Shown here piece after piece: positions 33,896-61,096 of a stretch of 64,000 nt of DNA; within the stretch, counting starts at the first letter, position 1; each line of letters opens with the position of its first letter. This DNA comes from an uncultured euryarchaeote (GTDB lineage: Archaea; Thermoplasmatota; Poseidoniia; Poseidoniales; Poseidoniaceae), in NCBI GenBank assembly GCA_937899865.1, contig CALBRH010000060.1:18933-82932 (forward strand), written 5' to 3'. Under the pieces are notes generated by a model. That model was not told where the DNA came from and made no database searches. It was given only the letters and a program-made list of their open reading frames with translations. The translations under genes and the position numbers were made by a program.

Positions 33896-36826
33896 TCAAA
33901 GTATTTCTTTAAGATATTGTCCAGTAAAACTGTGTATATTATCGGCGATTTTTTCTGGCGTTCCATGTGCGATTAGTTGGCCGCCGCGGTCGCCTCCTTC
34001 AGGGCCTAAATCAATGACCCAGTCACTGGATTTAACAACATCTAAATGGTGTTCAATGACTATTACCGTGTGCCCTTTGCCACGTAATTCTAACAACACA
34101 TCAATCAGCATTTGAACATCTGATAGTGCTAGCCCGGTTGTCGGTTCGTCAAGGATGTAAACTGTGTGTTTGTTAGGAGGTCTGCGTAGTTCACTAGCGA
34201 GTTTTACTCTTTGCGCTTCACCACCAGATAATGTTGTAGCAGGTTGGCCAAGTCTAACATAAGATAGTCCTACAGCGCATAGGGTGTCTAAAGTTCGATG
34301 AATTTTTTTATGATTTTCAAAGAATTTTGTAGCTTCACCAATCGGCATCTCAAGGATATCGTGGATGGTTTTGCCTTTCCACGTCACTTCAAGACATTCT
34401 CTGGTGTATCTTTTCCCTTCACAAACATCACAAGTGATCCAAACATCGGGTAAGAAGTTCATTTCCAACTTAATTGAGCCTGCGCCACTACAAGCTTCAC
34501 ACCTGCCCCCCTTTACATTGAAACTGAAGTTTCCTGGAGTATAACCTCTTTCTTTAGACAAGGTTGTTTGGGCAAATAATTTTCTAATTTCATCGAATAC
34601 TTTTGTGTAAGTTGCTGGATTGGAGCGGGGGGTTCGACCAATTGGGGATTGATCTATGATAATCGCCTTGTCTATTTTCTCAATTCCTTCAACACTCTTG
34701 TGCTTTCCAGGAGAAGTATCCGCATTATGTAATGACCGTTGCAGGATTGGTGCAAGAATACCAGAAACAAGTGATGATTTTCCAGAGCCAGAAACTCCTG
34801 TTACAGATGTCATACAGCCTAGTGGAAATTCAACATTTATCGATTGTAAATTATTATGTTTAGCACCTTTAATTTTTATTTTATCTTTGGTTGGTTTCTT
34901 TCTTTTAACAGGAGGTTCTATGGCTTTTCTACCACTTAAGTAGGCTCCTGTAATGGATTCTTCAGCCTTCATTACTTCTTCTGGCGGCCCATTTGCAACA
35001 ACGGTTCCTCCTTCTAATCCCGCCCCTGGTCCTAAGTCACAAAGCCAATCTGCTTGTCTTAATGTGTCTTCATCGTGTTCAACTACGATTAGGGTGTTTC
35101 CTAAATCGCTTAACTCTCGAAGTGTTGCAAGTAATCTTGAATTATCTCTTTGGTGTAAACCAATTGATGGTTCGTCAAGAACATACATCACACCTGTCAA
35201 CCTGCTACCGATTTGAGTTGCCAATCTAATTCTTTGACTTTCACCACCAGATAATGTGTTGGCTTTTCTATCTAAAGTAAGATAATCAAGCCCAACGCTG
35301 TTAAGGAAATCAAGTCGGCTTTCGATTTCTTTCAAAATTTCATTGCCGATGAATAGGCTCTTTTCATCCAGTATCTCTAATTGGTCGGCATACATTTCCG
35401 GTGGCCCGTTCTCATTTTCTGGACGCCATGCTTTGACTAATTCTAAACTATCATGGATAGAACATGAAGAAACTTCTGGGAGTCTAATTCCCCCAACAGT
35501 TACATGTCTGGCTGCTGCGTTTAATTTCTCACCATTACAATCAGCACAAGGTAAATCTGTCATGCAATTAATCAGCCGACCTCTGGTTCTATCCGATGAG
35601 GTTTCAGTATAGGTTTTCTCAAGCCTTGGGATTATTCCCTCCCATGGACGATTCATTTTGTAAACAGAGCCATTATCTGATTCAAAATGGAAGTTAATTA
35701 CAGTAGATCCTGAGCCATGTAATAGAATGTCTTGCTCATCATCTGATAGTAATTTGAATGGTACATGTGATGGTATACTGTAGTGTTCTGCGACTTGCTC
35801 AAGCAATCTTCGGTACCAAGATGGTGACATTGAGCGCCTCCATGGCCTAACACACCCATTACTAATGGTCATTTCATAATCGATTACTAATTCAACGTTG
35901 AATTGTCTTTGTACACCTAAACCTTGACAGCTGCTACAAGCACCGAGTGGAGAATTAAATGAAAATACTCTAGGAGATAATTCAGGCATAAATGCACCGT
36001 GTTCCGGACAAGCAAAATCTTCTGACCATGAGATTATTGCACCCGCTTTGTGTTCTCTTGACTTGCTGCCTTTTGGTAGTGATAAATTCTCAGAAGGTTG
36101 TTTCAAACTCTCTATTGCAAGAGCCCCTCCACCCAATTTAAGAGATGATTCTACTGCTTCAGTAAGCCTCTGTCGGGATTTCCTACGACAAACAAAACGG
36201 TCAATTCTCACATCAATATCGTGACGGAAGTTTTTGTCTAAATCTGGTGGTGACTCGAACTCAGCATCGTGGCCATTTACCTTACCATTCAGAAAACCTT
36301 GTTCTACTAACTGCCTGAACAAATCTTGGTGAGTGCCTTTTCTTGCTCTAATGACTGGTGACCAAACTGCAATTGTATGTTCTTCGAGATTCCATAAAAT
36401 ATCGTCGACTATTTCCTGTACGGTTCGGCGCGCAACCTCTACACCGCATGTAGGACAGTGTGGCTTGCCGATTCTCGCCCAAAGTAAACGTAAGTAATCT
36501 TGAATTTCCGTTACTGTTGCAACTGTTGAACGTGGATTGTGGCTACCTTGTTTTTGATCTATTGAAATGGCTGGAGATAGCCCTTCTATTCCATCACAAT
36601 CGGCTTTTTTCATCTGCCCGATGAATTGCCTTGCATATGATGAAAGGCTCTCAACATATCTTCTCTGGCCTTCAGCGTATAGAGTATCAAAAGCCAAACT
36701 AGACTTGCCTGAACCTGAAACCCCCGAGACTACAACAAATTTACCTCTTGGTAATTTAACATCGATATTTTTCAAGTTGTGAGTTCGAGCACCGCGCACG
36801 GTTATCCAATCTTGATTATCACTCAT
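33896..36826 (-). CDS. uvrA: Excinuclease ABC subunit A
   Basis: Two ABC modules (GVSGSGKSS twice, LSGGE twice, LDEP twice), Zn-finger CxxC pairs; SD AGGTGAGG. Confidence 0.97.
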   Translation of the reverse strand: MSDNQDWITVRGARTHNLKNIDVKLPRGKFVVVSGVSGSGKSSLAFDTLYAEGQRRYVESLSSYARQFIGQMKKADCDGIEGLSPAISIDQKQGSHNPRSTVATVTEIQDYLRLLWARIGKPHCPTCGVEVARRTVQEIVDDILWNLEEHTIAVWSPVIRARKGTHQDLFRQLVEQGFLNGKVNGHDAEFESPPDLDKNFRHDIDVRIDRFVCRRKSRQRLTEAVESSLKLGGGALAIESLKQPSENLSLPKGSKSREHKAGAIISWSEDFACPEHGAFMPELSPRVFSFNSPLGACSSCQGLGVQRQFNVELVIDYEMTISNGCVRPWRRSMSPSWYRRLLEQVAEHYSIPSHVPFKLLSDDEQDILLHGSGSTVINFHFESDNGSVYKMNRPWEGIIPRLEKTYTETSSDRTRGRLINCMTDLPCADCNGEKLNAAARHVTVGGIRLPEVSSCSIHDSLELVKAWRPENENGPPEMYADQLEILDEKSLFIGNEILKEIESRLDFLNSVGLDYLTLDRKANTLSGGESQRIRLATQIGSRLTGVMYVLDEPSIGLHQRDNSRLLATLRELSDLGNTLIVVEHDEDTLRQADWLCDLGPGAGLEGGTVVANGPPEEVMKAEESITGAYLSGRKAIEPPVKRKKPTKDKIKIKGAKHNNLQSINVEFPLGCMTSVTGVSGSGKSSLVSGILAPILQRSLHNADTSPGKHKSVEGIEKIDKAIIIDQSPIGRTPRSNPATYTKVFDEIRKLFAQTTLSKERGYTPGNFSFNVKGGRCEACSGAGSIKLEMNFLPDVWITCDVCEGKRYTRECLEVTWKGKTIHDILEMPIGEATKFFENHKKIHRTLDTLCAVGLSYVRLGQPATTLSGGEAQRVKLASELRRPPNKHTVYILDEPTTGLALSDVQMLIDVLLELRGKGHTVIVIEHHLDVVKSSDWVIDLGPEGGDRGGQLIAHGTPEKIADNIHSFTGQYLKEIL

Positions 36827-38980: not shown

Positions 38981-39004
38981 ATACTCCCCAAAACAAAATT
39001 TACT

Positions 39005-39790
39005 TTGATATTATGGAAGGTAATAGGGATAATACTGCAGTATGAATTGTATTTGTTGTTTGCTGGATTAGTTATTATTTCAGCATTATATTCGAGTGTT
39101 GGACATGGTGGTGCATCTGGCTATCTTGCTATATTATCAATTTCCTCTTATGGATTGATGAGTCATATTTGGTTAAAGCAACATGTATGGGTAATGAATC
39201 TAGTCGTTGCTTCAATTGCTTTTTATCATTATAATAAAGCAGGTTATCACATACCAAAACTTACCATTCCTTTCATAATTGCTAGTATACCAATGGCATT
39301 CATCGGAGGTATGTTAGATATTGATGCTGAATTATATGATATATTATTGTCAATTACTTTATTTTGGGCTGCGTATAAAATTGTAAATTACGTAGATGTT
39401 AATCATACTAAACTGAATAATCCAGGAAAATTTGAGCCTTATTTTTGGGGCGGGGGTATTGGATTTTTTAGTGGACTGATAGGAGTCGGGGGGGGAATTT
39501 TTCTATCTCCAATAATCTTACTTAAGCGGTGGGCTACAGTAAAGTCTGCTGCCGCTACTGCGGCTGTATTCATATTTGTGAACTCGCTTTCTGGATTAGT
39601 TGGTATGGGTGTATCGAATCAATTAAATCTAGATTATTCTTTATTGGCAATTTTTGTGATTGCGATAATTATTGGTGGTTATTTAGGTTCATTATATGGA
39701 GCTAAATACGCTGATAATAATAGAGTTAGGAATTTGTTAGCAGTTGTTTTGATTATCGCTGCAGGAAAACGATTTTTAGAACTATTGTGA
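39005..39790 (+). CDS. TauE/SafE-family membrane transporter
   Basis: SSVGHGGASGY and SGLIGVGGGIFLSP repeats; about 8 TM helices. Confidence 0.85.
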   Translation: MILWKVIGIILQYELYLLFAGLVIISALYSSVGHGGASGYLAILSISSYGLMSHIWLKQHVWVMNLVVASIAFYHYNKAGYHIPKLTIPFIIASIPMAFIGGMLDIDAELYDILLSITLFWAAYKIVNYVDVNHTKLNNPGKFEPYFWGGGIGFFSGLIGVGGGIFLSPIILLKRWATVKSAAATAAVFIFVNSLSGLVGMGVSNQLNLDYSLLAIFVIAIIIGGYLGSLYGAKYADNNRVRNLLAVVLIIAAGKRFLELL

Positions 39791-40993
39791 TTGGAATAAT
39801 TTGTGTATTTTTTCTGCCTGCTCTTGTGGTGATAATTTAAGATCAATAATTCTGTTCCTGCCAGCAGTAGCCCATTTTTCGCGCTGGTTTTTATCTCGGC
39901 ATTCATTTAATGCTTCATGCCATTTTGTATAATCGTACCTTGGTAATAACCTACCGCATTCGCCATCGATTATTGAATCTCTAAAACCGCCATCATCAAC
40001 AAAAATTGCTGGCGTGCCGATTGAAAAAGCCTCAATAGGAGTTAATCCGAATGGTTCTTTGTGAGCCATACTAATTATTGCTAAGGAATTTTTCATTAAA
40101 CTTGATAATTCTTGAGATGATAATCTTGGAGCGACCCAAAGTTTGACTTTTTTAGTTGAAGCATGCTCCTGGAGAATTTTGATTTCTACATCACTACCGC
40201 CACCGACATGCACTAGAGAAATATTGGTGCCAGATAACATAGATATGGCCTCCATTGACCCTTTTGCCCAATTTGCTGTTCCAATAGTTACAACATATTC
40301 TAATTCTTTTCCTTCTATATATGGATTAGTTGTTTGGTCTGTGTTATCTGTGTATTCTTCTCTATCAACACATGGGTGGATGAAGTCGCATTTGATGCCA
40401 TAGACTTCCTCTATTCTCTGTGATGTATAAGATGAGTTACCAGATATTATTGAATTGTTATTTTTGGAAAATTGTTTGACTATTCTAATATCATTTTTCC
40501 TACCCTTTGAAAGTAATAAATTGGTAATAAATTTAGGTCTTTGAAATTTCCCATTTAGATTTCTATGTAATGAGTCTTCGTGGAAACCTCGATGTGGTTC
40601 TAATAGATATAAGTGGGATTTTTTTGCTTTTGGAATTATATCTAGCATCCCTAAATATCCATCACCACTAATTATGTGGAAATAATCGAATGTGTCTAAC
40701 CTTTCTATTAGATCATTACAGCTTAACCATGCTTTTTTTGAAGATGTGTGGATTTTGTCAAATATTTGTGAAGATGATGAGTAATTGGGAATCCATTTGT
40801 TTTCTGGTTTGAATAAATGGATGTTGTTGGTTTTACATATTTCTTCCAATTCACCACAGGAGGATAATGTTGCTACTGATACATCATACCACTTCGTTAG
40901 ATGTGGTAATCTACGTAACAAATCTCTCTCAGCACCACCCATCCTGGAAATAATTCCTTTTGCGATGAGTAGGGATGGTTTTTCATCAGCCAC
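39782..40993 (-). CDS. Glycosyltransferase family 4 (GT-B)
   Basis: MGGAER, SGNSSYT, EPFGLTPIEA...GTPAI motifs. Confidence 0.88.
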   Translation of the reverse strand: MADEKPSLLIAKGIISRMGGAERDLLRRLPHLTKWYDVSVATLSSCGELEEICKTNNIHLFKPENKWIPNYSSSSQIFDKIHTSSKKAWLSCNDLIERLDTFDYFHIISGDGYLGMLDIIPKAKKSHLYLLEPHRGFHEDSLHRNLNGKFQRPKFITNLLLSKGRKNDIRIVKQFSKNNNSIISGNSSYTSQRIEEVYGIKCDFIHPCVDREEYTDNTDQTTNPYIEGKELEYVVTIGTANWAKGSMEAISMLSGTNISLVHVGGGSDVEIKILQEHASTKKVKLWVAPRLSSQELSSLMKNSLAIISMAHKEPFGLTPIEAFSIGTPAIFVDDGGFRDSIIDGECGRLLPRYDYTKWHEALNECRDKNQREKWATAGRNRIIDLKLSPQEQAEKIHKLFQSQ

Positions 40994-41043
40994 GAATAGA
41001 GGTGGTAGCGTCCAGTATATTTCAACAACTCAAAAATGTCTGG

Positions 41044-41889
41044 TTAATTGTGAAAAATTATACCGTCATCACCAGTTCCGGATTTGAACATTTCTTGTAA
41101 GGTAATCAAACCAATATCTATAGGATAGGTTTCGTTTTTCGATGGGATTGTTAATGTGGTTAGGTGATTGGGTATGTTGCTAATAAAATCGTCAAAAGTT
41201 ACACCAGCTACATTTGTTATATGGTGGGGTAAAAATTCAACAATTAGCGTTTTTGTTGAATTCAAAATATTGGTCATACCTTTCATTGCAAAATACTCAG
41301 AACCTTCGATATCAATTAACACTAAATCAAAAATTTCATCCGACAAATATTCGTCAAGTGAATATGCTTGAACATCAATCACTTCGGGGTTATCATATGT
41401 GTAAATGTATTTATTATTCTGTGGAACTCTTTTGCTACCACCTGAATTTACTGTATTAAGTTGAAATTTGATTGTTTCTTGTTTATCGCTAGCAGCAATA
41501 TTGTGTGGTGTAATATTACTTATGTCATTCAATTTTATATTGGTTTGCAGCAAACTGTAATTGTTTGGATTGGCTTCTATAGCAACTAATTTTTCACATT
41601 TTTTAGAAATTGGTATTGCTAAGGAACCGATATGTGCACCTAAAATTAACACTGATGATTTTTTGTCAATATATTTTGAAATTGTATTGATCTCATTAAT
41701 CCCATACTCTCCTTTTGTTCTCAGTTTTTCCCCTACCTCTAAATCAGCAGGATCAACTGCAAATACTCCATTATTTGTATTGACTATGATTGAAGAAATA
41801 TCTTTACCAAGATTTTGTTTTAATCTCTTTGATTTCCTATTTTTTAGGAAAAAATTGAGTCGCCAATATAGCGATTTAAGCATTTGCAA
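41044..41889 (-). CDS. FkbM-family SAM-dependent methyltransferase
   Basis: ILGAHIGS, VAIEANP, NIAASD, LVLIDIEGSE. Confidence 0.88.
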   Translation of the reverse strand: MQMLKSLYWRLNFFLKNRKSKRLKQNLGKDISSIIVNTNNGVFAVDPADLEVGEKLRTKGEYGINEINTISKYIDKKSSVLILGAHIGSLAIPISKKCEKLVAIEANPNNYSLLQTNIKLNDISNITPHNIAASDKQETIKFQLNTVNSGGSKRVPQNNKYIYTYDNPEVIDVQAYSLDEYLSDEIFDLVLIDIEGSEYFAMKGMTNILNSTKTLIVEFLPHHITNVAGVTFDDFISNIPNHLTTLTIPSKNETYPIDIGLITLQEMFKSGTGDDGIIFHN

Positions 41890-41892
41890 TCC

Positions 41893-42198
41893 TCAATCAA
41901 ATTTCATTATATGGCCACATTCTGGATAGGAGCAGCTAACTGTATATCTTTGCTTCTTTGGTTTTGGAATTTTCAATCTGCACCCACACATCTCACATTG
42001 GATAACAAGTGTTTCTGGCTCAGTTGGTTTTGGAGCATCTTCTAAAACACGACCTGAAGAAGTTTTTGACCAACCTAGTGAATCAGTATAATCATCGGTT
42101 TTTCTGATTTTCTTTTGTTTTAGTGAAAGGCGCATTTTTCTTTTCTTTTTACGTGGCCTTGGGGCTTTTCCGCCTCGGTTTGGTCTTCTTGCAGCCAT
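41893..42198 (-). CDS. Small basic protein with C-terminal zinc ribbon
   Basis: Lys/Arg-rich N-terminus; CEMC...CSYPEC. Confidence 0.7.
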   Translation of the reverse strand: MAARRPNRGGKAPRPRKKKRKMRLSLKQKKIRKTDDYTDSLGWSKTSSGRVLEDAPKPTEPETLVIQCEMCGCRLKIPKPKKQRYTVSCSYPECGHIMKFD

Positions 42199-42300
42199 GC
42201 CAATCGATACTCGGTAAGGGTATAACTATTCAATCGCTTCGCAATAAGGATTGTAGGAGTTTTTACATTAATTGATAAACTGAATAGGTAATGAGTATAC

Positions 42301-42792
42301 ATGAAAAGAGGTATTTTACTGTTGGTTTTGTTTTCAATTTTCCTTTCTGGAGATATTGAGTTTAATGAAAATAATAGTGAAGTGCATACTATAACTGTTG
42401 ATGGTACTAATTTGAGATTTTACCCCGACTCATTAACAATAAATGAGGGAGATAGTGTTAGATTTCTTTGGGGTGGAGAGCTTTTACCCCATAATTCGGT
42501 AGAAGAAAATGGTGTTTTTGATAGTGGTGAGCCTGAAAGAGAGGTGGATTATTTGTATAATTTTGATTTTGATCAAGCGGGAACTTATGATTTCTTTTGT
42601 GAACCACACCAATCTGTGGGAATGGATGGAACGATTACTGTTTTAGATGTAGAACAAATTATTGAGGTTTCAAATGAAAATGAGGAAGATAGTAGTGGTG
42701 GTTTTATTATAATTGTTGGATTTGTTTTAGGATTAGGGTTATTATTATTGATTTATTTTAGGACAAGAATTGGTGATTTAGATATTTTGTAA
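42301..42792 (+). CDS. Blue (type-1) copper protein, plastocyanin/halocyanin family, membrane anchored
   Basis: LPHN and CEPHQSVGM copper ligands; signal peptide and C-terminal TM. Confidence 0.9.
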   Translation: MKRGILLLVLFSIFLSGDIEFNENNSEVHTITVDGTNLRFYPDSLTINEGDSVRFLWGGELLPHNSVEENGVFDSGEPEREVDYLYNFDFDQAGTYDFFCEPHQSVGMDGTITVLDVEQIIEVSNENEEDSSGGFIIIVGFVLGLGLLLLIYFRTRIGDLDIL

Positions 42793-42839
42793 TAATGTAA
42801 TTATTTGAATTAGTTCGGGATATATTTTATCAATTATAG

Positions 42840-42856
42840 ATGATAATAATTATCAT
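42840..42856. promoter_or_regulatory. Perfect 8-1-8 palindrome matching the 7-1-7 Fur-box consensus
   Basis: ATGATAAT-A-ATTATCAT; consensus TGATAATnATTATCA. Confidence 0.35.
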
Positions 42857-42871
42857 TAAGGGGGCTTAAAT

Positions 42872-43366
42872 TTGGTAAGAGTGTTAGAGATTCCACCCCC
42901 TGTTTCAAAAGAAAATGCTGATGAATATTTTGAAGTCTTAGAAAAAAGGGAATCTGAGAAAGAAGCTGAAAAATGGATTGAAAAACATTCTAATGAAGAT
43001 AGACATTATACTATTGGTAATGATTCTTCAGATAATATAATTCAGGAAATTAAGCCTCCGCCAAATTTATTTGGTATTTTTATTGTTGATCTTCTACTTT
43101 GGGGACCAATATGGATAATATTAGGATTAAATTTTATTTTGGCGATAATAGTTTGCGCAGTATTTAGTGTAGGTGTTTATGTTGTGTCAGTTAATGGTTA
43201 TAATAAAAAAATAAAAAATGCTGAATTGGGAATCTATTCAAAGAATGAGAAAAGTTGGGTAAAAGATGTTGTGGTGTTTTCATTAAGTTTCATAATAATA
43301 TTATTTTTATTCTTCATATGGTTTGTGATATGGTTTATTAAAAACTTTAAGATGTCAGGTTTGTAA
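42872..43366 (+). CDS. Hypothetical membrane protein
   Basis: Charged N-terminus then three hydrophobic segments; TTG start uncertain. Confidence 0.6.
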   Translation: MVRVLEIPPPVSKENADEYFEVLEKRESEKEAEKWIEKHSNEDRHYTIGNDSSDNIIQEIKPPPNLFGIFIVDLLLWGPIWIILGLNFILAIIVCAVFSVGVYVVSVNGYNKKIKNAELGIYSKNEKSWVKDVVVFSLSFIIILFLFFIWFVIWFIKNFKMSGL

Positions 43367-43380
43367 ATATTAGATGATGA

Positions 43381-44694
43381 TTATTCAATAATATATGATT
43401 TACCGTTCTCTGGTGAATGGGTTTTTATCCCATTTTTTCCCAATTCATCTACTAAGTGAGGCCTTGCAGTGTCGGGATCTGTGTGATAAATTACTACGTC
43501 TTCTGGATCGCATGAATAAATAAAATTTGTAATCTCTTTGTGTCCAGCGTGGGTTGAAAATGAGAAACTCTCCCAATTTAATGGAATATCTACTTGTTTA
43601 CCAAATATATCTATTTTAGATTCTGTTTGTAATTTCCTGCCACCTGTATCCTTTGCTTGATAACCGGTAAAAAATATCTCATTTTCAATATCGTGTCTAA
43701 GTCTATTTAGATACCAAATCGCTGGACCACCTTGTAACATTCCAGAAGTTGAAATAATTACATCTGCATCCAGTGCTTTCTTTCTATCTGATTTACTAGA
43801 TACTCTTCTTGACCAGTTCCATGCATCATTCAATAATTTTGGATCTCTAATAAATTGATTATTTTCAAGATATAATTTTGTTATTCTTTTACCCATACCA
43901 TCTACATGAACATCTAGTTCTGGACATTTTTGATAAAGACGTATTAACATGTCTTGGGTTCTACCGTTGGCAAAGGCTGGAATTAATACAGTACCTTGTT
44001 TATCAGTAACCCTGATTACATTTTCAATAAATCTATCTAATTCTTCTTCTTGATTAGCATGATCCTTTCCACCATAAGTTCCTTCAATAAATAATAAATC
44101 TACATCTGAAGGTTTAGCTCCATTTGTTAATGGTGAATTTCTTGTATCAAAATCTCCTGTGAATAATATATTTTTGTTATCGGTTTCCAATCTTAACATT
44201 CCAGCACCAGGTATATGGCCTGCATTATGAAGTGATAATTGCCAATTTTCTTGTTTCCATGGTTGTTCAAATTCATGAGTTATCCAAGAATCCATTGCTA
44301 AATCAATATCTCTTTTATCCCATGGTAAAGGATATTTCTCAATACTACTAATTTTGTAACAATCATTCCACATCATATGAGATATCTCTGCAGTTAATTT
44401 AGTTCCATGTAAATTAGTATTGTAATTTGCTGGAAGCCATGGTGCCATTCCTAAGTGATCAACGTGTGAATGAGTAATTATTGCATTTTTTACTGGTGGT
44501 GATTCTTTAGGATATTTTGGTGGTGATGTTGGAGCTATTCCATAATCTAAAAGTAATCTGTTAGTAGTATGATCTTCCAATATAATACCAACATTACCTA
44601 CTTCATTACCACCACCAAGGTAATGATATCGATATCCTGATTTAATTGGGTCTTGTGGATAATCGGTTGTTCGGCCTGGATTGTAAAATACCAT
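43381..44694 (-). CDS. Metallo-beta-lactamase/beta-CASP ribonuclease (aCPSF-like)
   Basis: GGGNEVG, THSHVDH, AGHIPG, FTGD, EGTYG, FANGRTQ, STSGMLQGG, FTGYQ, FSTHA. Confidence 0.92.
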   Translation of the reverse strand: MVFYNPGRTTDYPQDPIKSGYRYHYLGGGNEVGNVGIILEDHTTNRLLLDYGIAPTSPPKYPKESPPVKNAIITHSHVDHLGMAPWLPANYNTNLHGTKLTAEISHMMWNDCYKISSIEKYPLPWDKRDIDLAMDSWITHEFEQPWKQENWQLSLHNAGHIPGAGMLRLETDNKNILFTGDFDTRNSPLTNGAKPSDVDLLFIEGTYGGKDHANQEEELDRFIENVIRVTDKQGTVLIPAFANGRTQDMLIRLYQKCPELDVHVDGMGKRITKLYLENNQFIRDPKLLNDAWNWSRRVSSKSDRKKALDADVIISTSGMLQGGPAIWYLNRLRHDIENEIFFTGYQAKDTGGRKLQTESKIDIFGKQVDIPLNWESFSFSTHAGHKEITNFIYSCDPEDVVIYHTDPDTARPHLVDELGKNGIKTHSPENGKSYIIE

Positions 44695-44749
44695 TCTGAT
44701 TCATTTCTTCCAGATTGTCATCTAACATTTAGTTGATGGAAATAAAACA

Positions 44750-44776
44750 CCCCCACCCCATTATTTCCATTGGAAG
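44750..44776 (-). promoter_or_regulatory. ORB element 1 (Orc1/Cdc6 recognition box with G-string)
   Basis: Minus strand CTTCCAATGGAAATAATGGGGTGGGGG; matches TTCCAnTGGAAA-Nx-GGGG. Confidence 0.8.
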
Positions 44777-44913
44777 TAAAATTGAGTTGGAGTAAGTAAA
44801 CTTCTGGTGTAAATTTAGAATATATTATAGGCTACTTTCAAGATAAAACAAATGACGTTTTCACATTTTTTGATATAATTCATTTATTTTCACATTTAAT
44901 CAACAATAATAAA

Positions 44914-44933
44914 TTCCATAGGAAATTAGGGGG
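44914..44933 (+). promoter_or_regulatory. ORB element 2 (inverted relative to ORB1)
   Basis: TTCCATAGGAAATTAGGGGG; one mismatch in the core, G5 string. Confidence 0.72.
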
Positions 44934-44976
44934 TCTAAGGATAACATCTTCTTCATTTTAATTTAATGAGAAAATA

Positions 44977-44989
44977 ATTTCCACTGTAT
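44977..44989 (-). promoter_or_regulatory. Mini-ORB 3 (no G-string)
   Basis: Minus strand ATACAGTGGAAAT. Confidence 0.5.
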
Positions 44990-45068
44990 TTTTTCTTAAC
45001 TTATTTTTTCCAATATATTTCTTTAGGAATCACATAAACTCAAAATGTAATTGATTTTTCCCAAATAT

Positions 45069-45275
45069 ATGGCAAGAGTACCCGACCACATTTTTGTGGT
45101 CGATGAAGACAAATGTTATGGTTGCGGTGCTTGTATTGCATTATGCCCAGTCAACGTATTAGATCTAGAAAATAGAATTGCTATAGTTGATGAGAGCAAT
45201 TGTACTCATTGTGAACTTTGCATACCATCTTGTCCAGTTTTTGCCTTAGATATATTACCGGAGAATAATTTATGA
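45069..45275 (+). CDS. 2[4Fe-4S] ferredoxin
   Basis: CYGCGACIALCP and CTHCELCIPSCP; ATG 45069. Confidence 0.93.
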   Translation: MARVPDHIFVVDEDKCYGCGACIALCPVNVLDLENRIAIVDESNCTHCELCIPSCPVFALDILPENNL

Positions 45276-45994
45276 ATTCAATCGCAATTATCGGTAGTAA
45301 TTTAATCGGTTTACTTTGTGCAGACATTCTTTCTAAAGATAATACTGTAACAATAATTGAATCAGATCTTGAGTTAGGATTTCCAGCTAACTATCCAGGA
45401 ACATCAAAACAAGAAAAATTAATTTCAACAATTCTCAATAATCAAGATACAAAGAATTTATTCATATTAAATGAAAATGGTTTTACTAATTTTAGATCAG
45501 AATGGTTCATTAAATTATTAACTCACAAATTAGCAAAAAACAATGTAAAAATATTGAATCGAACAAGAGTTACAAAAATAACAGATGTAAATGGATTGTT
45601 AGAGATTTATACTAAAGGTAGTGAATTAGATTCTAATAATATAATGTGTAACAAAATTTTAGATTTTTCACACCTATCTTACAATACAATTGGCAATAAA
45701 AACCATTCACATAACTTATCATCAGATAAATTATTCAAACCAAACATTAACACAAAAACATTTTTTGTCGGTATATGTTTAATTGAAGATAGTAAAAATC
45801 TAACAACCCATGAAATATTAATTCCTAGAAATGATGGTCTTGCAGAGGTATGGTATCAAAATGATTTTCAAGAAACCCCATCACAAGGTTGGATAGAATC
45901 TAAAATAGTCAATTCATATTTTGATTCAAAGTTAATGTTTTTAGAAGAATATTATTACAAAGCCAAAGAAATAATTGAAAACATGGTGATATAA
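45272..45994 (+). CDS. Hypothetical protein with degenerate FAD-binding Rossmann N-terminus
   Basis: IAIIGSNLIGL...VTIIE..LELGFP; ATGA and TAATG overlaps with both neighbours. Confidence 0.6.
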   Translation: MNSIAIIGSNLIGLLCADILSKDNTVTIIESDLELGFPANYPGTSKQEKLISTILNNQDTKNLFILNENGFTNFRSEWFIKLLTHKLAKNNVKILNRTRVTKITDVNGLLEIYTKGSELDSNNIMCNKILDFSHLSYNTIGNKNHSHNLSSDKLFKPNINTKTFFVGICLIEDSKNLTTHEILIPRNDGLAEVWYQNDFQETPSQGWIESKIVNSYFDSKLMFLEEYYYKAKEIIENMVI

Positions 45995-46758
45995 TGAATA
46001 CTGAAAAATTATACTTAACTAATATTGAATCTGCATATAATACTAAATTTAATGCTAAAGTAATATCGATTAATGAAAATAAAATAGGCCTTGATAGAAC
46101 TTTATTTTACCCATTAGGTGGCGGTCAAAATTGGGATTTAGGAACATTACAATCTCCTAATGGTCCATTAGAAGTAACTGAAGTCAGAGGTAGAAATCTC
46201 ATTGAACATTATGTATCTGAAGATCACCAATTATCAATTGGCGATGAAGTAATTGGAGAAATAGATTGGGATAGAAGATATTCTCACATGAGAATGCATA
46301 CAGCTCAACATTTAATGTCTGGGATGGTTTACGAATTATTCAATTCTGCTAGAACAGTTGGAAATCAAATACATGCCACACATTCTAGAATTGATTTTAA
46401 CCCAATATCATTTACTGAGGAAATGTTACAACAACTTTCCGATTCTGCCAATCAATTAGTTAAACAATCAATTCCAGTACATGACTCAATTATGACTAGA
46501 GAACAAATTAATTCAATAATGCCTGAAGATAGAACAAATATGGCTTTACTCCCTAAATCAATTAGTAACCTTAGAGTGGTCACTATAGGAGATAATATTG
46601 ATCTGTGTCCTTGTGCAGGAACGCATATTTCCAATTTACTGGAAATAGGTGAAATATCAATCATTGGTAAAAAATCTAAAGGAAAGGGCACTCAAAGAAT
46701 TACTTACGAGCTTGGGAATGAATTTAACAACATTAAACCAAGTTCACAAATCATCTAA
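45994..46758 (+). CDS. Alanyl-tRNA editing protein AlaX
   Basis: DRTLFYPLGGGQ..D.G, MRMHTAQH, DLCPCAGTH zinc ligands. Confidence 0.92.
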   Translation: MNTEKLYLTNIESAYNTKFNAKVISINENKIGLDRTLFYPLGGGQNWDLGTLQSPNGPLEVTEVRGRNLIEHYVSEDHQLSIGDEVIGEIDWDRRYSHMRMHTAQHLMSGMVYELFNSARTVGNQIHATHSRIDFNPISFTEEMLQQLSDSANQLVKQSIPVHDSIMTREQINSIMPEDRTNMALLPKSISNLRVVTIGDNIDLCPCAGTHISNLLEIGEISIIGKKSKGKGTQRITYELGNEFNNIKPSSQII

Positions 46759-47394
46759 AATATCACCAACTTCATCAATAATTTCTTGCCAAATTTCTTT
46801 TTGTTTAATTTTCTTTTCAACATCTTCTTTCTTTTCAATAGATGATCTAAGGCCAATTTCTAAATCTTCACCAATTCTTTCATCCTTATTTATTGGTTTG
46901 ATTTCCTTACTCGGTATCGTTCTTTTACCATCATATTTTTGTTTAGATAATTCATCTTCACTCCAAGTTTCACTCCCAATTAATTTTGCTAACTCATTAC
47001 TTGGTGGCTTATCTTTCCAAGGATTTTTATTTACTAAATCTTGCATAATACGTCGCTCTTCAACTTCTTGCTTAGTGTAAAGATCACTAATATCTTCAGG
47101 ATATACATATCCTTCATCAAATTCAACAGTTGAAATTAATGACTGCTGATAAACCAACTCTTTTCCATGGACTTCATCAACATCAAACATTTCAGGTTTT
47201 GATAACATTGCATACAATTCTTTCATGTGCTGAGCAAGTAAAGAATCATCATTACCAATTAGCATATTTTTTACCGATGTGTGATAATCAATACAAGATT
47301 TACATCTACTCAAACCACTTACATCTTCAGCATCACAACGTAAACAACACCCCTGAAAACCCAAAGATTTCATTGCTTTTCGAGGCTGCGCCAT
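46744..47394 (-). CDS. Hypothetical protein with N-terminal Cys4 zinc finger
   Basis: CCLRC...CKSC; charged helical C-terminus. Confidence 0.65.
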   Translation of the reverse strand: MAQPRKAMKSLGFQGCCLRCDAEDVSGLSRCKSCIDYHTSVKNMLIGNDDSLLAQHMKELYAMLSKPEMFDVDEVHGKELVYQQSLISTVEFDEGYVYPEDISDLYTKQEVEERRIMQDLVNKNPWKDKPPSNELAKLIGSETWSEDELSKQKYDGKRTIPSKEIKPINKDERIGEDLEIGLRSSIEKKEDVEKKIKQKEIWQEIIDEVGDILDDL

Positions 47395-47465
47395 TTTATC
47401 AACAGAGAATACCTAAATCATCATCATATAATAGGATTCAATAAACTAGGGCGCTTGTAACCACC

Positions 47466-48386
47466 ATGGCGAGTCGAGACCCTAGAGCCGACATCGTTGA
47501 AAACAACCCATTTCCCAAACCCAAAATCCACCGTATTCATTCTAATCAAGATAGTAATAATAGTACAATTTACACAATGGATGATTTGAAAAGCATGTTT
47601 TCAAACCCAAAACAAACAAAACCACAAACAAGAGAAGTTTGGCAATTTTCTACAATAGAAAAAGAAAATCTCACACTCGCTACTGCAGCTTTCACACTTG
47701 CTCTTGGATTTATGGCTGTTAGAGGGGTTGGTGGAGTCTCAACACTTGGCTTCAATACCTGGGCTCTCACTCTATTACTTTCTATGCCAGTATTGCTGTT
47801 AGCAGTTGGTCCAGCATTTATTCTTCATGAAATTGGTCATAAAATAGTAGCCAAAAAGAATGGTTGTTGGGCTGAATTTAGAGCAGATCCTAAAGGATTA
47901 CAATTTGGTATTATACTTTCATTTTTCTTAGGATTTCTATTTATGGCTCCAGGGGCAGTAATGGTAGCTGGGCTTGTAACTAGAAGGCAAAACGGACATA
48001 TTGCTGTAGCAGGACCTCTAACCAACCTATCATTATTCATTATTGGAATACCTTTGTGGGTCTTAATTCTAGGACTAACAGGAGCATTTGAAACATCTTC
48101 AATCCCATTATTAGAAAATGGAAGTAGAGCTTACCTTAGCGATGGTTCAATTATCTGGCAATCTATGTTAATCGATGCTGGTGTTTGGTGGCTTAGTGCA
48201 AACCTAATTCTCGGTCTATTCAATATGTTTCCTTTTGGTCCTTTAGATGGTCTTAAAGTCAAGGATTGGAATGAACAAGTATTCTATGTGGTATTTTTAA
48301 TATTCTTAATTCCTGTACTTGGAATGTTCTTGGGAATGTGGTCTCCTACAGCACTTTTAGAAAATATAGTGAATAAAATCTTCTAA
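47466..48386 (+). CDS. M50 (site-2 protease family) membrane metallopeptidase
   Basis: HEIGH, IAVAGPLTN, NMFPFGPLDG. Confidence 0.9.
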   Translation: MASRDPRADIVENNPFPKPKIHRIHSNQDSNNSTIYTMDDLKSMFSNPKQTKPQTREVWQFSTIEKENLTLATAAFTLALGFMAVRGVGGVSTLGFNTWALTLLLSMPVLLLAVGPAFILHEIGHKIVAKKNGCWAEFRADPKGLQFGIILSFFLGFLFMAPGAVMVAGLVTRRQNGHIAVAGPLTNLSLFIIGIPLWVLILGLTGAFETSSIPLLENGSRAYLSDGSIIWQSMLIDAGVWWLSANLILGLFNMFPFGPLDGLKVKDWNEQVFYVVFLIFLIPVLGMFLGMWSPTALLENIVNKIF

Positions 48387-48456
48387 TTATGCATATTAGA
48401 TTACATTTTATTCATTTTGCATAAAAACCCAACAAAACACTTTACTGAGTTGAAAT

Positions 48457-50223
48457 TCATAGATATGCATTTCTTATTGGTTGTTCATCAAGATGGAAGA
48501 ATGAATAAGTTGCCCACCAAGTAATTGTGTCAAGAGCATCAACAAGGTTACTCGTACCACTTCGCTCTTCTCCGTAATCCTTACCAGTTGTATCCATCCA
48601 ATCTATCATTTCATCAATAGTATCACAAGTCTGGTGATAACACCAATATCCATCAACTAAACCACCGAATCCCATAGTAACTGTACCAAGGTTATCTTGG
48701 AATGTAGCATGGTCGGACCTTGCTGTAGTATCTTCGTAAACAATAATCTCAGGACGATCCTTTGCTAACCAATCATCAACTTTCCAAGTAGAAGCATCAT
48801 ATCCTTCCCCAAGTAATGGCGCCATTTGCTCTTCAACACCAATAGCATCTGAACCAATCCACATTGCCAGACCAACCATTCCTGGTTGATTCATTACATC
48901 ATGGTCAAGACTTGGTCCGATGTAAACTCTCATTGGCCACACCTCAGAATCTTTAGGATATCCATCAGGGTCGATTTCAGGTTCAGGGTCACAATTACCA
49001 GCGCCGCCACCATGACCATTACCACAAGGTGCACCCCCTCCACCAGGCCAGTTAACGCCCGCCATGTCTAGATTGACATAGTTGGTAACTTCAACATCTG
49101 GATTATCTTCTTTAACCCAATAATCAGTCCAGAAATCACTTCCTCTTTTACCACCTTCTTCACCAGACCACAAACAAAACACCATTGTATTACGTGTACT
49201 ATATGCGGCCATTGCCTCAGCTACAGTCAACACCATACTAGTTCCTGCAGTATTATCATATGCTCCAACACGAGTTCCATAAGTTCGACCAAAGAGATGC
49301 GGATCAAGCATACCTCCATTTACTGGTGGAGCAATATCGAAATGAGCCCCGAAAACCATCCATTTGTTTGGATCAACTTCACCAAATCGATAACCACAGA
49401 CATTGTACGCTTCAGGGTTTTGAGCACCCGTCATCAAAGAATCATAAACGAAACGTTGCACAATCACCTCAAGGCCAAAACCTTCCATTGTCGAAATCAA
49501 ATATTGGGCAGCATCCTCGTAAGCCAAATTTCCTTGACCTGCCCACCTATCTAAATATCCTACAGCACCATCAGCAGGGTCATCTAAATCAGGGGTTTCA
49601 TCAGACATTATGTTGATGTAATTGAATACAGTTCTACCATCAACCAAACCCATTGAATGTCTTCCACCTTCAGATTCACTAAATGCAGCAGCCATTTGCC
49701 GCTTAACAGATAGTTTAGCAACTACGACAGAACCACTAGTCATATTTGAATAATCAACAGTGTTTAACGAATCGTTAACCCCATCAACCCTCATGACACT
49801 AGGATTTTCATCAGAATCATAACCCCTTCTATCAAACCAGGTTTTCCACGACTCATCAATAGAGCGAACTGGCCAAATATCTCTTCCGTATTCTCCAAGA
49901 AGGACAACTGCAGTATCAGTTCTTGGTGGAGCTAAAATACTGAGTTGAACAGATTCACCAGATTTCAAATCTACTATAGTTGAATTTTGTACAAATCCAG
50001 ACTCTTCATTAAAGATTAGATATGGAATAAAAGCCGAAAGATCCGCTTTAGCAGTAATAGTAACCCCTTGAAAAACCCCACCAGATAAAATTTGAGGAGT
50101 TATCACAACATCCCTTTCAGAGTTTATTCCACTCTCTTCAGTTTCACCAAAACAACCAGAAAAAGCAGCACTAAACATCACCAAGACGAGAAACAACGCT
50201 CTTGACGCTCCTTGGCCGGGCAT
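48457..50223 (-). CDS. M28-family aminopeptidase, probable lipoprotein
   Basis: AHFD, GAYDNTAG, GEEGG, NLDM, RSDH, YHQ; lipobox FSGC. Confidence 0.9.
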   Translation of the reverse strand: MPGQGASRALFLVLVMFSAAFSGCFGETEESGINSERDVVITPQILSGGVFQGVTITAKADLSAFIPYLIFNEESGFVQNSTIVDLKSGESVQLSILAPPRTDTAVVLLGEYGRDIWPVRSIDESWKTWFDRRGYDSDENPSVMRVDGVNDSLNTVDYSNMTSGSVVVAKLSVKRQMAAAFSESEGGRHSMGLVDGRTVFNYINIMSDETPDLDDPADGAVGYLDRWAGQGNLAYEDAAQYLISTMEGFGLEVIVQRFVYDSLMTGAQNPEAYNVCGYRFGEVDPNKWMVFGAHFDIAPPVNGGMLDPHLFGRTYGTRVGAYDNTAGTSMVLTVAEAMAAYSTRNTMVFCLWSGEEGGKRGSDFWTDYWVKEDNPDVEVTNYVNLDMAGVNWPGGGGAPCGNGHGGGAGNCDPEPEIDPDGYPKDSEVWPMRVYIGPSLDHDVMNQPGMVGLAMWIGSDAIGVEEQMAPLLGEGYDASTWKVDDWLAKDRPEIIVYEDTTARSDHATFQDNLGTVTMGFGGLVDGYWCYHQTCDTIDEMIDWMDTTGKDYGEERSGTSNLVDALDTITWWATYSFFHLDEQPIRNAYL

Positions 50224-50473
50224 ATCCGAGCCTAACTATGCCTATTTCTCAAACCATCGGTTCAATGTTAAAATTTTAAACAATTGATTTATGTACTAGC
50301 ATGTACAATATATTATTGATAGTATGATAGTTGTATCAACTAAAATTTATTGCAAGAAAAGAACTGCTAAGAAAACAAAAACACGCATCCCTTACTTATG
50401 GGCTAATAATGTAATAATTGATGAGAATGACACCTCATGCCCTTTAATTGAAGGATAGCCTTGAAGCTAAAAC

Positions 50474-51148
50474 TTACTCTTCTTCACTACTTTTTTCATT
50501 CCAAATACTTAATGAAACAACAACCAAACCAATTGCTGAAATAACCATCAATGCTGAAATCAAATCCTTTTTGGAGTTACTATCACTACTCTCCAACTCT
50601 TCAACATCCTCACATCCTGCACCAAAACAGTCACCAACACTTGGAATCCCACCTTCTTCATGGATATCAACTCCAACAAAAATTGTGTTAACCCAAAAAT
50701 CAGTATGGCTACCATTTATCATTCTTTCAACTTGATAACTGTAAATTCCAGAACCATTTGTACCATTAAAATAGAATACGTCGGATTCAACACATTCCGA
50801 ATTCAATAGAGTTCCATTTTCATCATATTGACAATCAAATACCAACCATGGTGAAAAATAATCAATACTCTCATTGAAAGCACCATCATCATCAATATCA
50901 ATACTTACTCGGATTGTTGAATTATTAGTACTGTCACCCATTTTGAATTTCACACCATCTCCTGCTACAAAACCAGCGGTTTCCAAAACATCTTTCGGTA
51001 CTGGGCCATCTTCTTTCAAAATAGACATCATTACATTAGGGGTGTGTGCTTGAACGGTAATACAAGGGCTCATCAGAATGAATAAAATTCCAACTACCCA
51101 TACACGCAAATTATCGCCCCCCGCTGATTTAATCCAAATCATCATCAC
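50474..51148 (-). CDS. Hypothetical exported protein with C-terminal TM anchor
   Basis: Signal-like hydrophobic N-terminus, Cys pairs, C-terminal TM; start uncertain. Confidence 0.65.
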   Translation of the reverse strand: MMMIWIKSAGGDNLRVWVVGILFILMSPCITVQAHTPNVMMSILKEDGPVPKDVLETAGFVAGDGVKFKMGDSTNNSTIRVSIDIDDDGAFNESIDYFSPWLVFDCQYDENGTLLNSECVESDVFYFNGTNGSGIYSYQVERMINGSHTDFWVNTIFVGVDIHEEGGIPSVGDCFGAGCEDVEELESSDSNSKKDLISALMVISAIGLVVVSLSIWNEKSSEEE

Positions 51149-51183
51149 ATAAAGTCAAAACGGACAATAGGTTGGCATTAACC

Positions 51184-52974
51184 ATGCGGGGCAAGGAAAT
51201 AGCACTCTCCTTCTTCCTAGTTTTACTGATGATATCAAGTGCGTTGTATATTTTTTCAGGTGATGAAGAATTAACTACAAGCCCGAAATCAATTGTTTTT
51301 GATAGTGAAGACCCTTTATTCCAACACGAAGGACACGACCACTCTAATGCTTCACAACACATGGTTGGGACTGATAATTTTGAACAGTTAGATTTCAATC
51401 CTTTAACCACAAATGGTAATGCTGAAGTGCAAGTTGCATCAACTCCAGATGGTGAAACTTATGCTTACTTAGCTGGATGGAATGACATGCATATTGTTGA
51501 TGTAACAGACCCTGAAAATACAGTAGTAACTGGAAAATACACCGACCCAAATACACAGGTGTTAGATGTAAAATATATCGAATACAATGGTAGAGAATAT
51601 ATTGTACAGCAGAATCAATTAATCGATCCAGGATATGCAGATCCAAACGTTGGTGAATGGAGTGACCCAGCCCAAGTTTCTGTTACACTAATCGATGTAA
51701 CTGACAAAGAAAATCCAACTTGGGTTGATTCATGGTATGATGTTGACCACCCAAGTGGGCCACACAATCTTTACACTCATATGATAGATGGAGAATGGTA
51801 TCTATTTGTTGCCAATCCAGATTATGAAAACTGTAATGATGCTATCGATGAAGCATGCGGAGGCGTAACTATTGCACATCTAAATCTCGATGGTTCTGCT
51901 GCAAGAAATATCCCTGGTGTTCCAGGTTCTGGTTTAGGCCATACAATCATCAAAGTTGGAGAGTATGAAGTTGCTTGGGAGCACACTAGAGGAGGCTGGA
52001 TATACATTCACGATATGACCGTCCAACTATGGCCGGGAGACGACCCAACAGACCCTAGATATGGTAGGACATTCATCTATGGAAGTTATTGGGAAGCAGG
52101 TCTTAGAATTGGAGACGTGACAGACGTCCCACACCCAGTAAATTCACCTGAAGAATATGCAATACATGCAACACTGTGTAAAACAGGACAAGGAAATCCA
52201 GTTCAATGTAGGTGGCGTGCTGAAGAAGTCGGTTTGTGGATGGACTTCCTTGATTTAGATGAAGATGGCCAACCAGATAGCGGGACCACTGGAAATGAAA
52301 ATGGTGGCAGAGTTTCATACATACATTATGCAGAACCGTTTCCAGAAATGTTAGACATGTCTCATCTCGGATATTCAGATGAACCAGTCCATGTTACCAC
52401 TGCTGCAGTTGAAGTTTTATCAACTTCAGTTGGTACAGGAATAATTTACCTCTTAGACACTACAGATTATACATATTATGATGGCCAATTACGATTCCAA
52501 CCTAAATTAATCAGAGATTGGGAAATTCCATGGGCGGAAGACCATTGTTATGGTGCAGATTGTGAGATAAACCCCGACCCAGATGAATGGCTATTATTTT
52601 CACCACACAATTTAGATAGCGCTTATTTCGTTACCGACGAATCTACCGATCAAAGCCATGGAGGTGGTTGGGATGGGCGGTTGTATATTTCTCACTACCA
52701 TGCAGGATTATGGGTATTAGATATCGAAACCCTAGTCTCTCCAACAGATCCAGATGATAGAATTGGCACTTATGCAGAAGCTACGATTGGTTGGTTCCTT
52801 CCCCACGGAGATGATGGAATAGTCCTTGAATCTGATTTTTATGAATTTTCATGGGTGCCATTTTTATGGGCGGTTGAACATCATAATGGAATTACTTACG
52901 CGTCCTGTATTTCAACTGGTTTGTATGTTGTGCAACTAGATATTGATATACCATATATTGGAACAATTGTCTGA
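51184..52974 (+). CDS. Exported LVIVD-repeat-like beta-propeller protein
   Basis: Repeats MHIVDVTDPEN, VTLIDVTDKENP, LRIGDVTD, YLLDTTD, LWVLDI; YGSYWEAG and YHAG blades; N-terminal TM. Confidence 0.72.
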   Translation: MRGKEIALSFFLVLLMISSALYIFSGDEELTTSPKSIVFDSEDPLFQHEGHDHSNASQHMVGTDNFEQLDFNPLTTNGNAEVQVASTPDGETYAYLAGWNDMHIVDVTDPENTVVTGKYTDPNTQVLDVKYIEYNGREYIVQQNQLIDPGYADPNVGEWSDPAQVSVTLIDVTDKENPTWVDSWYDVDHPSGPHNLYTHMIDGEWYLFVANPDYENCNDAIDEACGGVTIAHLNLDGSAARNIPGVPGSGLGHTIIKVGEYEVAWEHTRGGWIYIHDMTVQLWPGDDPTDPRYGRTFIYGSYWEAGLRIGDVTDVPHPVNSPEEYAIHATLCKTGQGNPVQCRWRAEEVGLWMDFLDLDEDGQPDSGTTGNENGGRVSYIHYAEPFPEMLDMSHLGYSDEPVHVTTAAVEVLSTSVGTGIIYLLDTTDYTYYDGQLRFQPKLIRDWEIPWAEDHCYGADCEINPDPDEWLLFSPHNLDSAYFVTDESTDQSHGGGWDGRLYISHYHAGLWVLDIETLVSPTDPDDRIGTYAEATIGWFLPHGDDGIVLESDFYEFSWVPFLWAVEHHNGITYASCISTGLYVVQLDIDIPYIGTIV

Positions 52975-52983
52975 GGTGAGTTG

Positions 52984-53649
52984 ATGAAAAAAAGATTAAT
53001 TACGCTAACAATTTGCTTAATGTTCATTCTACCAGGATGCATAAATTCTGATGATAATACAGAATCTATTTTCCATGGTGATTTAATTTCATCAGGTAAG
53101 GAAATAACCGATTTTAATTTACTTACTAGCGAAAACACATCTTATAATTTCAAACAAAACACAGAAGGAAAGGTAACAGTAATAGCCTTCTTATTCACTA
53201 ATTGTTACGATATTTGCCCAGTTGTAACATATAATCTAAGATATATTCACGAAAGTCTAAACGAATCTCAACTTGAAAAATTAGAGTTCCTTACAATCAC
53301 AGTAGATCCTTGGAGAGATAACACAACCATATTGGAAGAATGGAAACAATCGACCAAATCTAACTGGACTCATTTAACAGTAGCAGACACTCAACCAAAC
53401 TCTCCCGAAATGTCAACCCTAGCGCAGGTTTGGACAGATTTTGATGTTGGATTTAAAATTGAAGAAAACACCAACGAATCAAATACTTCAGCCAGACATC
53501 ATCCTTCTTCTTATGATTACAATATTGCCCATTCTACAGGGACGGTGATAATTGACCATGAAGGAAATCAACGGATTTGGTGGGGAGATTATGATTGGAT
53601 TATCGATTTAGTTAAAGAAGATATATTGAATCTAGTCTCTGAGATTTAA
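52984..53649 (+). CDS. SCO1/SenC-family copper chaperone, probable lipoprotein
   Basis: FTNCYDICP (CxxxC), ITVDPWRD, IAHST; lipobox LPGC; SD GAGGTGA. Confidence 0.9.
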   Translation: MKKRLITLTICLMFILPGCINSDDNTESIFHGDLISSGKEITDFNLLTSENTSYNFKQNTEGKVTVIAFLFTNCYDICPVVTYNLRYIHESLNESQLEKLEFLTITVDPWRDNTTILEEWKQSTKSNWTHLTVADTQPNSPEMSTLAQVWTDFDVGFKIEENTNESNTSARHHPSSYDYNIAHSTGTVIIDHEGNQRIWWGDYDWIIDLVKEDILNLVSEI

Positions 53650-53734
53650 ACCGAGATAACGAATTTCCGGATTCAAGAAACTGATTACCAGTATTGGGCT
53701 AAGCATTAAGTGGGGACAACTTTCGGATTTACAC

Positions 53735-54544
53735 ATGGCAACGGTTCGTTTGGACCAAAAACAAAGGGCGCTGATAAGAGCCATACCCGATTCTTATCAT
53801 TCCGCCTTAGCCAACTTTTTTGGTAGCGGACCCAAAGATATCGAACTTGCCAGAAAACAACATTCTGATTACAAAAACACACTTGAAGATGCAGGAATTA
53901 GTGTTGTAATGCTTGATGCTGATGAGAATCATCCAGACTGTCTTTTTGTTGAAGACCAAGCCGTGATTATTGACGGACGAGTACTGCTCCCAGTCCCAGG
54001 CCACCCTTCAAGGGTAAATGAGCAACCACCGATTTCTAATTTCCTAGTTACTGAAATGGGCGGCGCACAAGTATGTAGGATGAGCGGAGATGCAAGAATG
54101 GATGGAGGAGACATCTTACGTTTAGGAGATTTATTTTTTGTTGGACGCTCAACACGAACCAATGATTTAGGGATAGAAGAATTACGAGATCTACTATCTC
54201 ACTTAGGCCATGAACTAAGGGTAATCGACATCCCTGAACACGCTCTTCATCTAACTAGCATAGCATCCACTCCTACAGATGAAGTAATTTTAGCCCCTGA
54301 AGGCTATCTACCAAAGGATGCATTTGGAGAGTTACCAGAAGGATCCCGAGTGATTTGGATGCCTGAAGAAGAAACCTATGGCTGCAATACTATTGGTCTT
54401 CCTGGCGGTAAAGTATTAGTTGCTAAAGGGTATCCTACAGTAGAAAAAACTCTTATTGAATTAGGACTTGACATTATCACTTTAGATTTCAGTGAAATAC
54501 GAGCTGCCGACGGTTCACTGACGTGCTGCTCACTATTTTATTGA
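53735..54544 (+). CDS. Dimethylarginine dimethylaminohydrolase / amidinotransferase family
   Basis: PDCLFVED, MDGGD, GRSTRTN, LHL, GSLTCCS. Confidence 0.88.
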   Translation: MATVRLDQKQRALIRAIPDSYHSALANFFGSGPKDIELARKQHSDYKNTLEDAGISVVMLDADENHPDCLFVEDQAVIIDGRVLLPVPGHPSRVNEQPPISNFLVTEMGGAQVCRMSGDARMDGGDILRLGDLFFVGRSTRTNDLGIEELRDLLSHLGHELRVIDIPEHALHLTSIASTPTDEVILAPEGYLPKDAFGELPEGSRVIWMPEEETYGCNTIGLPGGKVLVAKGYPTVEKTLIELGLDIITLDFSEIRAADGSLTCCSLFY

Positions 54545-54553
54545 ATAATCAAT

Positions 54554-55599: not shown

Positions 55600-55653
55600 A
55601 TCACACCGTTATATTGCACGACTTTTAATCTTGCACAGTATTGACAATTTCAC

Positions 55654-57831
<2,178 letters not shown>

Positions 57832-57870
57832 TTATAAAACATTAATGATAAACAATTCCAAAATTAAAAA

Positions 57871-59437: not shown

Positions 59438-61096
<1,659 letters not shown>

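Follow-up and report, generated by a model that had tools for sequence, protein, structure and literature searches.

A window of 64,000 nucleotides (bases 18933-82932 of contig C60, numbered from 1 in what follows) from an uncultured archaeon contains a switch in strand composition, which sits on a 375-bp gap between two divergent genes (44695-45068). This gap is very probably the chromosomal replication origin of its host, which is a member of Candidatus Poseidoniaceae, Marine Group II. Archaea of this group are abundant in surface oceans and uncultured. The gap carries a unique, inverted pair of origin recognition boxes (ORBs) around an AT-rich spacer, and with an origin here the plus strand to its right becomes the leading strand, which is therefore C-rich. 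A previous interpretation, made from the letters of the window alone (the sequence-only reading), had proposed the switch, the ORBs and an inverted GC-skew polarity for the lineage; this interpretation is supported, with limits on how far the polarity claim reaches.

Results

The codon counts on which the switch had been proposed proved exact. The plus-strand gene at 42301-42792 has 22 G-ending and 7 C-ending codons, and the plus-strand gene at 45994-46758 has 10 and 27. As claimed, the pattern is reversed on the minus strand: uvrA has 99 G-ending and 166 C-ending codons, and the gene at 46744-47394 has 25 and 6. We called long, non-overlapping open reading frames (ORFs) across C60 and counted the third positions of their four-fold degenerate codons (GC skew, GC4, and AT skew, AT4, given for the coding strand and pooled over the whole contig). 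On the left arm, plus-strand genes had a GC4 of -0.10 and an AT4 of -0.13, and minus-strand genes -0.32 and +0.14; on the right arm, plus-strand genes had -0.31 and +0.09, and minus-strand genes -0.03 and -0.24. Every four-fold contrast on the contig was significant (p from 5e-3 to 1e-28). The coding strand prefers C over G at four-fold sites throughout the genome (-0.22), and the pattern on C60 is this preference with a strand component superimposed on it that does not depend on gene direction. Expressed on the plus strand, the component is about +0.11 for GC and -0.14 for AT on the left, and about -0.14 and +0.165 on the right.

The plus strand is thus G/T-rich at neutral sites to the left (1-44700) and C/A-rich to the right (45070-64000), whichever way the genes point; non-coding DNA follows suit, though less strongly. 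The switch point lies at about 44.85 kb. Codon positions 1 and 2 move in the same direction as the four-fold sites. The GC skew of the non-coding DNA on C60 was +0.037 on the left vs -0.086 on the right (p = 0.03). The cumulative GC skew of the window climbs to 43-45 kb and declines afterwards, and the raw cumulative keto-minus-amino curve has its maximum in the 45.0-45.5 kb bin.

The ORB motif has been described as a 'TCCA-GAAAC' dyad with a GGGGT G-string behind it (PMC4164010). We ran the pattern TCCAnnGGAAA-N(2-6)-GGGG over the whole assembly of the source genome (G000; 2.01 Mb in 65 contigs), where about 0.1 matches are expected by chance (a rough hand estimate). The sole matches were two full boxes in the gap, near 63.8 kb of C60, inverted and about 136 bp apart. 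ORB1 (44750-44777, minus strand, TTCCAATGGAAATAATGGGGTGGGGG) consists of the dyad TTCCAATGGAAAT followed by the G-string GGGGTGGGGG, and ORB2 (44914-44934, plus strand) reads TTCCATAGGAAATTAGGGGGT; both match the pattern exactly, and in both the G-string is distal to the spacer. The 136-bp AT-rich spacer between them (44778-44913) is a candidate DNA unwinding element.

The fragmentation of the source assembly made it impossible to follow skew along the entire chromosome, so one closed and three near-closed relatives were used instead. G003, G016 and G009 are near-complete genomes of the same genus, G009 being analysed over C3:1-360,000 only, and G039 is a closed genome of 1,598,520 bp from the sister family. 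The ORB pair is present on the long contigs of all three same-genus genomes and in G039 at 186,218-186,390. Of 16 named public loci from Poseidoniaceae or Poseidoniales, 15 have the pair, and in each of these the spacer is 136-139 bp long with 20-41% GC. The pair lies there next to an ortholog of the left neighbour of the gap, which encodes a beta-CASP protein, and nine of 11 short same-genus loci have the inverted pair in this same setting; the remaining two have one ORB each inside the short flank that was fetched. In an alignment with the closest relatives the ORBs, a central block of the spacer, a block to the left of ORB1 and the start region of the right-hand gene are conserved, while the remainder has diverged.

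The switch travels with this module. In the 15 public loci, which are kin and hence not independent samples, genes transcribed outward from the site had a pooled GC4 of -0.28 and AT4 of +0.16, compared with +0.02 and -0.16 for inward genes (p = 1e-44 for GC4 and 7e-128 for AT4). With all ORFs of at least 60 aa masked and the origin gap left out, the pooled non-coding DNA of the public loci had a GC skew of +0.054 on one side vs -0.017 on the other and an AT skew of -0.035 vs +0.086 (p = 4e-7 and 4e-22), with the GC shift in the same direction in 11 of 13 loci. The beta-CASP proteins of these loci are mostly 61-64% identical to that of G000. Four-fold sites should be saturated at this distance, which argues that the bias is maintained and not simply inherited.

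Is the site an origin or a terminus? At an origin, genes are expected to diverge from the site, and they do in G039 and G009. The cumulative gene-strand bias of G039, once detrended, is lowest at 186,444, right on the ORB pair, and highest at 941,667, and gene orientation differs between the replichores (p = 1e-4, with the terminus set at the antipode). In G009, there are 17 plus-strand and 44 minus-strand genes to the left of the site and 130 and 80 to the right. In the window itself, nine of the 12 ORFs of at least 80 aa between 30 and 44.7 kb lie on the minus strand, directed away from the site, which bears out the gene polarity that had been described. Together with the unique and conserved inverted ORBs and their AT-rich spacer, this upholds the choice of an origin over a terminus.

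The same evidence weighs on the alternative of a replication terminus or fork-convergence zone, in which leading strands would have the ordinary G/T-rich polarity and the ORB-like boxes some other Orc1-related or regulatory role. Such a site would explain why the cumulative GC skew has its maximum here, a classical terminus signature, and it fits with orc1/cdc6 not being adjacent. We nevertheless consider it highly improbable, because two full ORBs, each with its G-string, facing opposite ways across an AT-rich spacer are the anatomy of an origin and are unique in the genome, and because genes in G039 and G009 diverge from the site and do not converge on it. We know of no published archaeal terminus that carries ORBs. 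An Xer/dif site, which the sequence-only reading had named as evidence for a terminus, did not emerge: C60 has no Xer-type recombinase gene, the only tyrosine recombinase gene of the genome (PF00589) being on contig C65, although no search for a dif motif was made. Neither has to lie beside a terminus, however. Another alternative is that the flip marks an inverted segment, a low-GC island gained by horizontal transfer or a misassembled join. The G+C content of 29-33% at about 40-47 kb and rearrangements relative to relatives elsewhere on the contig lend this some colour. It is the least probable of the alternatives, however: gene order is syntenic with G003 and G016 on either side of the site, the G+C trough around the ORB pair is conserved in relatives, and the flip and the ORB module coincide in more than 18 independently assembled genomes, a recurrence that an inversion or assembly breakpoint would not produce.

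A further explanation dispenses with replication altogether and attributes the flip to gene orientation and codon usage, for example if outward genes were highly expressed and favoured C- and A-ending codons. The strong genome-wide preference of the coding strand for C over G would be its basis, the third-position cumulative skew of G039 partly tracks gene-strand bias, and the non-coding signal is weaker than that at four-fold sites. Yet genes on opposite strands of the same arm differ as a strand effect predicts, and genes of the same orientation differ between the arms. Codon positions 1 and 2 shift too, and total GC skew runs opposite to what gene orientation by itself would produce, namely a G-rich effect at first positions. 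The parallel shift of non-coding DNA, from which ORFs had been masked, argues against a pure codon-usage explanation, and we regard this alternative as unlikely, if somewhat less so than a terminus.

With the site taken as an origin, four-fold sites, non-coding DNA and total skew all have a polarity that is the reverse of the bacterial one. On the long contigs of G000, G009, G003 and G016, the raw total cumulative GC skew reaches its maximum 0.01-1.3 kb away from the ORB site. In bacteria, such a maximum is the signature of a terminus. Tools built on that rule would therefore take the origin for a terminus, and the predicted swap of origin and terminus by skew-only tools holds for these four same-genus contigs. 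It does not extend to G039, where the detrended total GC skew is incoherent, the skews at first and third positions working against one another: by codon position, GC skew has a position-1 minimum at 175 kb and a position-3 maximum at 185,376. Without detrending, the total skew of G039 has its maximum at 190 kb, and little weight should be put on that maximum.

The reach of the bias differs between the two families. Corrected for gene orientation, the GC component holds the same sign over 180-200 kb leftward in G003 and G016, and for 270 kb rightward in G009 save for one exceptional bin. The AT component of the same-genus contigs fades within about 30-80 kb, and overall the leading strand has A over T within about 30-100 kb of the origin, with this excess absent or reversed farther out. 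In G039, leading-coded and lagging-coded genes had a GC4 of -0.26 vs -0.05 at 0-50 kb, and the difference was also strong at 50-100 kb. The inverted polarity that had been claimed for the lineage stands as a C-rich leading strand in Poseidoniaceae, while in the sister family orientation-independent skew is confined to about 100 kb on either side. Along the large contigs of G000, corrected skew gave no clear second switch or terminus, and strong skew was otherwise confined to contigs C45 and C28, whose counterparts by synteny in relatives are no more than about 50 kb from the origin.

Several results weigh against a replication origin as the source of the pattern. No orc1/cdc6 or other replication gene lies beside the ORB pair; the genome has two Orc1/Cdc6 genes, at C1:62226-63320 and C63:91090-92184, both of which match TIGR02928 above the curated cut-off, and the orc1/cdc6 copies of G039 are more than 330 kb from its ORB pair. 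Co-orientation of genes with replication is modest (56-58%), and the gene-strand bias of G039 stays flat along some 480 kb to one side of the ORB pair. Outside C60, local gene-strand bias and corrected skew are uncorrelated in the source genome. In G039, orientation-independent GC4 asymmetry is absent at 100-400 kb and slight beyond, and AT4 reverses to a weakly T-rich leading strand. A simple mutational bias acting along the whole replichore does not predict this loss or reversal beyond about 100 kb.

What might give rise to a bias of this shape? One possibility, which we put forward tentatively and consider rather doubtful, is that two processes overlap: a weak bias as long as the replichore, and a strong bias towards A and C on the leading strand within the first 30-100 kb or so on each side. 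The origin-proximal bias would then record something particular to early fork travel. It might be initiation that is often abortive or stalled in slow-growing ocean cells, a polymerase or nucleotide-pool regime that differs directly after firing, or a net fork direction that decays as origin-independent starts account for the copying of much of the chromosome.

Discussion

Apart from the missing adjacent initiator gene, the structure of the site is that of an ordinary ORB-type origin. We infer how it would work from its resemblance to known origins. By homology, an Orc1/Cdc6 initiator whose gene is on another contig would bind ORB1 and ORB2; the spacer would then be where MCM is loaded, with forks departing in both directions. 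Leading and lagging roles swap at such a site, and a strand-asymmetric bias in mutation or repair would then probably give the arms their mirror-image composition.

In having a sharp change of sign at the origin that is independent of gene direction, the switch resembles the GC and TA skew of bacterial replichores. Its local magnitude at four-fold sites (0.1-0.17) is also within the bacterial range. It differs in its opposite polarity and in being uneven along the replichore. The closest structural counterparts are the oriC1-type archaeal origins bound by Orc1/Cdc6, such as oriC of Pyrococcus abyssi and oriC1 of Sulfolobus (reviewed in PMC4010727). Common to these and to the Poseidoniaceae site are the ORB dyad and G-string, inverted boxes, an AT-rich unwinding region, an intergenic position between divergent genes, and conservation. 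The lack of an adjacent orc1/cdc6 or replication gene sets the Poseidoniaceae site apart, such a neighbour being usual at archaeal ORB-type origins but not obligatory, and the site also differs in lying at the opposite extreme of the skew.

Inverted polarity has itself been published before, in Haloferax volcanii and in budding yeasts, and Poseidoniaceae is a new lineage for a known feature. In H. volcanii, Ori3 lies at maxima of the third-position and non-coding cumulative GC skew, while position 1 tracks gene-strand bias (Paravel et al. 2026, PMC12999951). The codon positions of G039 split in the same way, with a position-1 minimum and a position-3 maximum by the ORB pair, although its non-coding cumulative curve has no peak at the origin. 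The Poseidoniaceae contigs differ from H. volcanii in that their total GC skew also peaks at the origin. H. volcanii moreover has several origins and belongs to a different phylum-level lineage, whereas Poseidoniaceae has a single ORB site and an excess of A over T only near it. The budding yeasts S. cerevisiae, K. lactis and C. albicans were reported with an inverted skew in which the leading strand is rich in A and C (PMC3459929). As here, the skew jumps at origins (efficient ones, in the yeasts) and is visible in intergenic DNA. These are eukaryotes with many stochastic origins and different polymerases, in contrast to a circular archaeal chromosome with one recognisable origin.

In the literature searched, we found no paper that places the replication origin of Poseidoniales (Marine Group II) or describes its skew. 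The conserved, unique ORB pair beside the beta-CASP gene is a marker by which Marine Group II genomes can be oriented, and it provides an anchor for coverage-based growth estimates (peak-to-trough ratios) and for assembly checks. For skew tools built on the bacterial rule, the consequence is an origin called as a terminus in Poseidoniaceae and the lack of a coherent signal in the sister family. The results add a major lineage to the archaea and yeasts with a C/A-rich leading strand, and bear on the cause of replication skew in cells whose helicase and polymerases are of the archaeal-eukaryotic type. If two processes do shape the bias, skew domains could serve in uncultured archaea as a fossil map that shows how origins have been used.

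The neighbours of the gap are both transcribed outward. The beta-CASP metallo-beta-lactamase gene on its left (43381-44694, minus strand) has the Pfam domains Beta-Casp, Lactamase_B and RMMBL, and the 68-aa ORF on its right (45069-45275, plus strand) is of the 4Fe-4S ferredoxin type, judged by a CxxCxxCxxxCP motif read from its sequence. Within the gap, a mini-ORB-like half site, TACAGTGGAAA (44977-44989, minus strand), has one mismatch to the ORB core and is partly conserved in the alignment. To the left of ORB1, the block GTCATCTAACATTTAGTTGATGGAAAT (44713-44742) is near-invariant among the four closest sequences and may be the beta-CASP promoter or an additional half-ORB. The centre of the spacer has a block of some 45 bp (about 44817-44865, GAATATATTATAGGCTACTTTCAAGATAA...CAAATGACGTTTTC) that is almost invariant in the closest relatives while its flanks have diverged, and that may be a binding site for an additional origin factor.

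The G+C content is 29-33% over about 8 kb around the origin (39000-47000 in the window, about 58-66 kb on C60), compared with 40% contig-wide. The trough at the ORB pair is smaller in G009, G003 and G016 (3-5 points) and weak in G039. A full-length UvrA gene of bacterial type lies on the minus strand at 33896-36826, and strand-specific excision repair is one candidate contributor to the strand asymmetry of the lineage.

Gene order and orientation show further differences among the genomes. Genes 43-47 kb to the left of the origin (1-2087 of the window and sequence upstream of it, C60:16783-21019) have their syntenic counterparts in G016 on the other side of the origin, 17-22 kb to its right. 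This arrangement suggests an inversion spanning the origin between the two genomes, in which leading or lagging status would be preserved. The gene-strand bias of G039 is asymmetric about the ORB pair: it is strong in two segments, 186-600 kb and 948-1306 kb, while the rest of the genome is flat. This could reflect past rearrangements or extra replication starts.

We also considered a second origin near orc1 on C1, and rejected it: the ORB-like matches there, at C1:56.4 and 56.9 kb, are a lone palindromic core and an intragenic match, and form no origin-like cluster. In both the source genome (C1:56872-56892) and G039 (C1:519055-519073), a gene 4-5 kb from the higher-scoring orc1/cdc6 contains an ORB-like stretch with a GGGGT tail; this stretch could be a coding coincidence or a putative intragenic Orc1 site.

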